DNA of 64,000 nt, taken from the IMG/VR virus record IMGVR_UViG_3300005077_000026, positions 21,261 to 85,260 of that record. One strand, 5' to 3'. This DNA comes from a virus. Its lineage: Duplodnaviria; Caudoviricetes. Within the stretch, counting starts at the first letter, position 1; every line of letters starts with the position of its first letter. Shown here piece by piece: positions 57,702 to 57,802 of this stretch. The translations under genes and the position numbers were made by a program. The notes beneath the pieces are model-generated. The model saw only the letters and a list, made by a program, of their open reading frames with translations. It was not told the origin of the DNA and did not search any database.

Positions 57702-57802
57702 AACTTTAAAAGCTTTTTGCAGTTTATTATATGCTATGCTTGCTTATTATCTCAGCTGTTGCAATCAGTACTTCTCATATCTCATTCCTCCGAATTGCAG
57801 TA

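Follow-up and report, generated by a model that had tools for sequence, protein, structure and literature searches.

An early-strand RNA segment complementary to the shared early-gene leader of an uncultured siphophage: a conserved anti-leader and candidate regulon-wide regulator

We analysed a stretch of 64,000 nucleotides (the window), bases 21261-85260 of an 85,260-bp IMG/VR virus record that is rated 99% complete and carries the siphophage-type genome of an uncultured phage. Upstream of its early genes lies a short element, the anti-leader, which is complementary to the leader that these genes share, from the Shine-Dalgarno sequence (SD) to the start codon. Judged from the sequence and from its recurrence in related phages, the anti-leader is real and conserved, and it probably masks the shared start sites at the RNA level. 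An earlier note on this DNA had proposed that one such RNA acts on the whole early regulon. We tentatively adopt this reading, a regulon-wide anti-leader RNA, with a probability of about 0.45. The element, the structures around it and the leaders are located as follows.

57771-57792, + strand: anti-leader; DNA CTTCTCAT-ATCTCAT-TCCTCC, RNA CUUCUCAU-AUCUCAU-UCCUCC; complements the leader from SD to AUG
57759-57799, + strand: weak stem enclosing the anti-leader, UUGCAAU/AUUGCAG
57437-57761, + strand: upstream cassette that ends just 5' of the anti-leader; its closing inverted repeat (57447-57477/57712-57742) is 31 nt long and 97% identical
57802-57880, + strand: terminator-like hairpin and U-rich run, with a 15-bp G+C core and an A/U-rich outer stem
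57873-57912/58222-58262: 40-bp stem, which absorbs the GAGATATGAG segment in folds
58460-58483, + strand: first early-gene leader (SD 58461-58465, AUG 58475-58477, then the first codons)
59243, 59762, 60129, 61037, 61653, 62752, 63401 and 63987, then genome 500, 1569, 1781 and 2173, + strand: consensus leaders, GGAGGTATGAGAAA(N)ATG

The early-gene leader, GGAGGTATGAGAAATG, heads about 13 early genes when variants are counted, all of them on the + strand. Its 14-mer core, GGAGGTATGAGAAA, had been reported to occur eight times, and this is the count that we obtained on the + strand of the window (59243 to 63987), with one further copy at genome position 500. The reported complementarity was also confirmed: CATATCTCATTCCTCC, at 57776-57791 (+), agrees at 14 of 16 positions with the reverse complement of GGAGGTATGAGAAATG, and matches with at most two mismatches are expected by chance 0.08 times per 64 kb, both strands included. 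The full element, 57771-57792, contains a tandem duplication of the spacer complement. Over the 2.6 kb that precede the first leader, the best match, with gaps allowed, to the leader's reverse complement has a shuffle P of 0.005. The only CC dinucleotides within 56904-58445 (57787 and 57790) fall in the element's CCTCC, as the earlier note had stated. Predicted element-leader duplexes have energies of -19.7 to -24.5 kcal/mol, about equal across the 12 leaders tested, and in the whole genome the anti-leader is the second-best non-self partner of the consensus leader (-20.6 kcal/mol). The match is beyond chance by sequence identity and unremarkable by duplex energy alone.

The comparison with related phages adds new evidence. 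A search with the large terminase (TerL) revealed many uncultured relatives at 45-82% identity, and in five other lineages, with TerL identities of 53-59%, the early strand holds an anti-leader 5' of the lineage's own first leader. Ungapped searches of the relatives found none at first; they were misled by duplications of 3-7 nt within the elements, which motif and gapped searches then recovered. The anti-leader of every lineage carries a short tandem duplication.

This phage: CTTCTCAT-ATCTCAT-TCCTCC, 670 nt upstream of the first leader, shuffle P 0.005
L107/L105/L101: CATTTCTTAC-TTAC-CTCC, for leader GGAGGTAAGAAATG, 163 nt upstream, shuffle P 0.005
L103: CATATCTTAC-TTAC-CTACC, for leader GGAGGTAAGATATG, 123 nt upstream, shuffle P 0.0125
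L111: TTCTTACCTC-TTACCTCC, about 108 nt upstream, shuffle P 0.027
L090: CATTTCTTAC-TTTCTTG-CCTCC, about 1.38 kb upstream, shuffle P <0.0025 (family leader used, the lineage's own later leaders being beyond the contig end)
L110: CTCTTTTCAC-TCTTTTCAC, for leader GTGAAAGGAGAG, about 1.04 kb upstream, shuffle P 0.003

The relatives share the modular early leaders, with a hairpin, an A/C-rich spacer and then GGAGGTAAGA(N)ATG, a family form that is different from the GGAGGTATGAGAAATG of this phage. The elements differ with them. In this phage, CTCAT of the anti-leader faces ATGAG of the leader, where CTTAC faces GTAAG in the others; CATATC faces GATATG in L103, and CATTTC faces GAAATG in L107. In L110, G-U pairs stand in for the avoided CC when the element pairs with GTGAAAGGAGAG. 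When elements and leaders were scored across lineages, the own leader scored highest for the elements of this phage, L103 and L110. Co-variation of element and leader, which the earlier note had suggested as a check, was found: the anti-leaders of the five lineages fit their own leader families, and three further relatives gave no signal. The exact 15-mer of the leader was also sought across IMG/VR, with 79 single hits, a chance-like result, and no record with several copies; there is therefore no close relative with exactly this leader among these records. Related loci were also sought with TerS, with the first early protein and with the 426-aa neighbour of a second anti-leader site (described below), and one distant match or none was obtained.

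Does the element match one leader or the family? In all five lineages tested, its reverse complement fits the consensus leaders better than it fits the adjacent first leader, which has the poorest fit of all in L103, L107 and L111 and ranks 12th among the 13 of this phage. That the anti-leaders are fitted to their lineages, and to the consensus better than to the first leader, argues against chance and favours the regulon-wide reading. As an observation on the leaders themselves, the first of each array is the most divergent of its family in all lineages, and thus the poorest match to the adjacent anti-leader (inspected at 58461 in the window and, in early-strand coordinates, at L103 6736, L107 16180 and L111 18265).

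The same genome holds a second anti-leader, within a unit that resembles a small RNA (sRNA) gene, which strengthens the case for an anti-leader RNA in this phage.

G000 9709-9720 (L249:2210-2221), + strand: second anti-leader, CCTCATACCTCC, a 12-mer that perfectly complements GGAGGTATGAGG in the leader
L249:2129-2297 (G000:C1:9628-9797), outside the window: sRNA-like unit with promoter-like site, hairpin and terminator-like hairpin

This site is the leader's best non-self partner in the genome, and the chance occurrence of a perfect 12-mer is roughly estimated at 0.005 per strand. It lies in a 350-nt intergenic gap, about 55 nt downstream of TTGACT-18-TAAGAT with a TG extended -10, in the apical loop of a hairpin that is followed by a 21-bp hairpin and UUUUCU; the fold of the whole unit has a z score of -5.6. 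These features give it the appearance of a free-standing sRNA gene, about 130 nt long. The pattern TTGACW-N16-19-TAAGNT occurs at two genome sites only, upstream of this anti-leader and at 56934-56962. The latter is the promoter that the earlier note had placed upstream of the first element, and as a pattern it holds: TTGACA-17-TAAGCT (+) could drive transcription of the + strand across 57771-57792. Directly upstream of that element, a consensus promoter scan and reading of the sequence gave no convincing promoter. Rfam returned only sub-threshold chance matches on L249 1950-2400, a counterpart of the second anti-leader was not found in the one near-complete relative searched, and aligning the two anti-leader sites with MAFFT gave no structural alignment.

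We thus propose the following sequence of events for a regulon-wide anti-leader RNA. Transcription of the early (+) strand would expose 57771-57792 as an unstructured, C/U-rich segment, whose CCUCC and flanking bases would pair with SD, spacer and AUG of the leader common to about 13 early genes. Such pairing would keep 30S subunits off the start sites and so repress translation, and could also make double-stranded targets for RNases; its likely effect would be to limit or time the synthesis of early proteins. The segment could be delivered in two ways, of which one or both are probable. It may form the 3' part of a pre-early transcript that ends, by termination or processing, at the hairpin and U-run of 57802-57880, which would make it sRNA-like, or it may be carried within read-through transcripts and pair intramolecularly. 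A broader proposal, in which the uncultured siphophages of this family control all their early genes by RNA alone, every early gene bearing the same leader and one or two RNAs bearing its complement, which includes a tandem repeat and co-evolves with the leader family, strikes us as conceivable and somewhat doubtful; the second, stand-alone sRNA gene, deeper in the genome, would then supply a delayed and stronger dose in this phage.

Antisense control of a single phage gene is already known, as is the protein-based global shut-off of early start sites in T4. If the regulon-wide reading is true, an RNA seed that matches the leader of 10-20 genes and changes with that leader across lineages would be a new regulatory layout, and it would account for the invariant non-SD spacer of the leaders. 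The comparison of lineages also provides a search rule for metagenomic phages, in which the reverse complement of the dominant leader is sought just upstream of the first leader-bearing gene.

Several results weigh against this reading. The element is predicted to pair in cis with the first leader (57771-57792 with 58460-58483, i.e., SD, AUG and first codons) at P ~1 in three transcript contexts, and its fixed position just 5' of the first leader fits a cis helix equally well, while being needless for an RNA acting in trans. Three relatives have leaders without a convincing anti-leader (L104, P 0.70; L136, P 0.46; L097, P 0.16). L107, L103 and L090 have the 10-mer CATNTCTTAC in common and are thus not fully independent samples, and a hairpin with U-run follows the element in only three of the six lineages (this phage, L107 and L111). 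In terms of energy, the 35-nt translation initiation region gave z -1.0 to -1.4 against dinucleotide shuffles of the 2.4-kb region (at z -1.0, 11 of 60 shuffles matched the real duplex energy of the initiation region), and across the genome the duplex energies tail off without a break (-22.1, -20.6, -19.9 and -19.4). The retention of CC in the element, which had been described as kept against a local bias, does show function, but CC and GG are depleted symmetrically, so that it is uninformative on the strand. The TGCAAT (57760-65)/ATTGCA (57794-99) stem, said to display the element in its loop, exists, but the hairpin is not significant: its free energy is -3.5 kcal/mol (z +0.23), 110 of 200 shuffles fold equally well, and the stem is missing from the minimum free energy (MFE) structure of a 143-nt context and back in a 126-nt fold. 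Since the stem is no better than chance, the element is best treated as single-stranded; its mean probability of being unpaired is predicted at 0.91 (126-nt context). The invariance of the leader could have another cause, a nuclease resembling RegB. In T4, the proteins RegA and RegB shut off early genes globally through a shared start-site feature, RegB by cutting GGAG in early SDs before A-rich sequence (PMC3014915). The effect proposed here would be parallel, with the difference that the recogniser would be RNA.

The rival that survives best takes the element as the 5' arm of a long-range closing helix that acts only in cis, with SD and AUG of the first gene as the 3' arm and the other leaders not targeted; we consider it unlikely. 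Transcripts from 56934 would mask the start or form an RNase III processing site heading the early operon, and transcripts starting between the arms would be translatable. The predicted helix has 19-20 bp with bulges; RNase III cleaves double-stranded RNA of about 20 bp, often with an internal loop. Similar pairing is predicted in L090 (P 0.99, arms about 1.37 kb apart) and L110 (P 0.97-1.0, about 1.05 kb apart), and appears in the MFE structures of L107, L103 and L111. The element is upstream of the first leader in every case, and where the gaps are long they are filled by cassettes self-closed by inverted repeats of 24-52 nt, which would hold the arms near each other. In 765-nt folds, the SD of the first leader is the least accessible among 12 leaders. 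Between the arms lie TTGACT at 57873 and 58285 and the -10-like TATAGT repeats of 58310-58341, none of them convincing in the consensus scan. The regulon-wide claim of the earlier note is partly supported, the element being matched to the leader family; cis pairing with the first leader would be an equally simple mechanism. What argues against a helix restricted to cis is the fit to the consensus: a cis-only partner should track the first leader, and the element does not. The product of the first early gene is not conserved across lineages either, the duplex energy lies within the shuffle null, with about equal pairing to all leaders, and this phage, L107 and L111 have a terminator-like hairpin between the two arms. 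The cis partner suggested in the earlier note is a different one: GAGATATGAG does occur at 57893 (+), with its complement at 57774, but folds place this segment in the 40-bp stem.

A further alternative dispenses with RNA pairing altogether. The element would be an inverted copy of the leader, serving as a minus-strand ribosome-binding site for a mini open reading frame (ORF; MRSTDCNS or MRYEKY) or as an inverted repeat at the DNA level, and either kept leader-like by descent or gene conversion or bound by a factor that recognises leader DNA. The minus strand does read GGAGG-AATGAGAT-ATG with a good 8-nt spacing, an ORF of 7-13 codons follows the inverted leader in every lineage, and the symmetric depletion of CC and GG favours neither strand. 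However, the peptides of these mini-ORFs are unrelated and their lengths are those that AT-rich sequence gives by chance, and the tandem duplications push SD and AUG 10-14 nt apart in L107 and L090, so that MRSTDCNS, put forward as an alternative in the earlier note, is a weak candidate. No good minus-strand promoter was found upstream (the best has 9/12), and gene conversion across inverted copies of 14 nt is unlikely. The L110 version keeps its pairing through G-U on the early strand only, and at the second anti-leader, which lies inside a + strand promoter-terminator unit, the minus strand offers no start codon. We regard an inverted copy as improbable. A chance match in a low-complexity, AT-rich region is highly improbable: the single-genome expectation of 0.08 per window is not negligible, the energy-based nulls were not exceeded and some random matches are expected when, as in the first reading, many features are looked at, but the element recurs in five further lineages with lineage-specific sequence, holds the sole CC dinucleotides in 1.5 kb and is joined by a perfect 12-mer anti-leader in the same genome.

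If the element acts in trans, its layout resembles that of anti-SD sRNAs and of P1 c4; for action in cis, the likeness is to the gene e class of T4. Among trans-acting base-pairing sRNAs, those that combine a C/U-rich anti-SD seed with a Rho-independent terminator include the prophage RNA DicF, which acts on ftsZ; the general class has been reviewed for phages (PMC12197685). The anti-leader shares with them an accessible C/U-rich seed against SD and AUG, a following stem-loop with U-run, and many possible targets for one seed. It differs in that the targets would be the phage's own genes, reached through the near-identical leader of about 13 of them, and in that the element would lie inside a long pre-early transcript, with only the second site in stand-alone form and no Rfam match. 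In P1 and P7, the antisense RNA c4 is encoded upstream of its target in the same operon, is processed out by RNase P and blocks the ribosome-binding region of a single target region (icd/ant) for immunity. The anti-leader has the same position relative to its target and likewise would pair with a ribosome-binding region; unlike with c4, the whole early-leader family is complementary, and no tRNA-like fold was found.

In T4 genes e, soc, 49 and I-TevI, the closest parallels for action in cis, SD and AUG are paired with sequence further upstream when the transcript is a longer, earlier one, and translation proceeds from transcripts that begin within the structure (PMC3014915). Here too an upstream segment of the same transcript is predicted to pair with SD and AUG. 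However, the T4 structures are local hairpins of single genes, whereas the arms are 80-1,380 nt apart in these phages and the 5' arm fits the family consensus better: an arm tuned to the masked gene, as in gene e, is not what we find, the first leader being the worst or nearly the worst fit. The early operon of T7 has RNase III sites such as R0.3, upstream of gene 0.3, which are local hairpins without an SD. It resembles the present arrangement in being an early operon of the host RNA polymerase with a structured leader, intercistronic hairpins and a double-stranded element at its head, and differs in that the helix predicted here is not a local hairpin and includes the SD. None of the systems compared has one RNA segment that matches the leader of many genes and co-varies with the leader family across phages.

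Around the anti-leader, the RNA is predicted to be highly structured. Two very stable structures flank the element, the helix that closes the 57437-57761 cassette, a possible processing site, and the hairpin at 57802-57873, an inverted repeat with a fold z of -5.1 and a U-rich tail on the + strand. The terminator scan did not list this hairpin, the loop of which is 14 nt. Rfam at a permissive threshold gave only sub-threshold chance matches in window 54000-64000, and a search for tRNA and tmRNA found none. The fold of 57440-58270 has a z of -10.2. More generally, long-range inverted repeats (17-52 nt, 83-100% identity, 160-650 nt apart) surround small pre-early units in several lineages; their architecture is conserved across lineages and their sequence is not. 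Counted as a guide to the folding strand, G-U and C-A mismatches in these repeats number 13 and 8, too even to favour one strand.

Window 57447-57742 and 57873-58262: long-range inverted repeats of this phage
L090:272-1552, L103:7497-7974, L110:5615-6219, L111:5892-6452 and L136:7884-8412: long-range inverted repeats of the relatives

Other small features stand nearby. Two promoter-like sites lie back to back, TTGACT-16-TATAAT on the - strand (11/12; 56921 to 56894) and TTGACA-17-TAAGCT on the + strand (56934-56962), and this pair (56894-56962) flanks the inverted repeat GTCAAG/CTTGAC. Three tandem TGTATAGT units, each -10-like, are found at 58310-58341, between the anti-leader and the first leader, and a CACGAG/CTCGTG hairpin with GGAGG in its loop at 58394-58410. 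Within the early block, direct repeats of GAGAAATT(T/C)T, paired 13-20 nt apart, occupy the loops of intergenic hairpins before four early genes. Twelve copies are on the + strand and one on the - strand; the motif overlaps GAGAAAT of the leader and could be a protein-binding or promoter motif.

Window 59166-59200, 60968-61000 and 63705-63735, and genome ~1514-1540: pairs of GAGAAATT(T/C)T

In the genome as a whole, a leftward block of late genes starts at 55213, and a rightward block of early genes starts at 58461, crosses the record end and reaches genome position ~2200. Neither tblastn of TerL against isolate phages nor megablast of 56000-64000 gave a match.

34287-38606, - strand: tape-measure protein
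52488-54416, - strand: large terminase (TerL)
2240-4840, + strand: family-A DNA polymerase

Between the two blocks, an AT-rich stretch (~55900-58400) is nearly without CC and without GG. The depletion of the two dinucleotides is symmetric, which points to a constraint at the DNA level, and such a constraint is probably its cause. A stretch free of CC and GG is present upstream of the terminase in at least 16 related loci.

L090, L097, L102, L103, L104, L111, L112, L136, L151, L165, L203, L210, L216, L224, L229 and L247: loci with the CC/GG-free stretch

By analogy with packaging of the lambda type, this stretch would be packaged after all other DNA and would lead the way into the cell. The first-step-transfer DNA of T5 is a leading end free of restriction sites, and a T5-like, restriction-site-free leading end is one possibility here. 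All-against-all BLAST of the small ORFs in the CC/GG-free regions found no proteins conserved between phages. In this phage and in L090, the small ORFs inside the region are preceded by GG-free GAAAG(C/T)GA(G) instead of GGAGG, which may be an alternative ribosome-binding signal where GG is avoided.

Window 57478-57497 and 57915-57936: GAAAG(C/T)GA(G) sites of this phage
L090 near 1420, 1165 and 1505, read on the - strand of the locus: GAAAG(C/T)GA(G) sites of the relative

Two minor observations concern the host. As read from the DNA, the product of the early gene at 61051-61575 contains A(N/D)L(R/Q)G pentapeptide repeats in a long series; repeats of this kind are common in cyanobacteria, which hints at a cyanobacterial host. 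The depleted regions of this phage (at 56464) and of L090 each contain GGCCGATCGC, a sequence close to HIP1, a palindrome of cyanobacteria.
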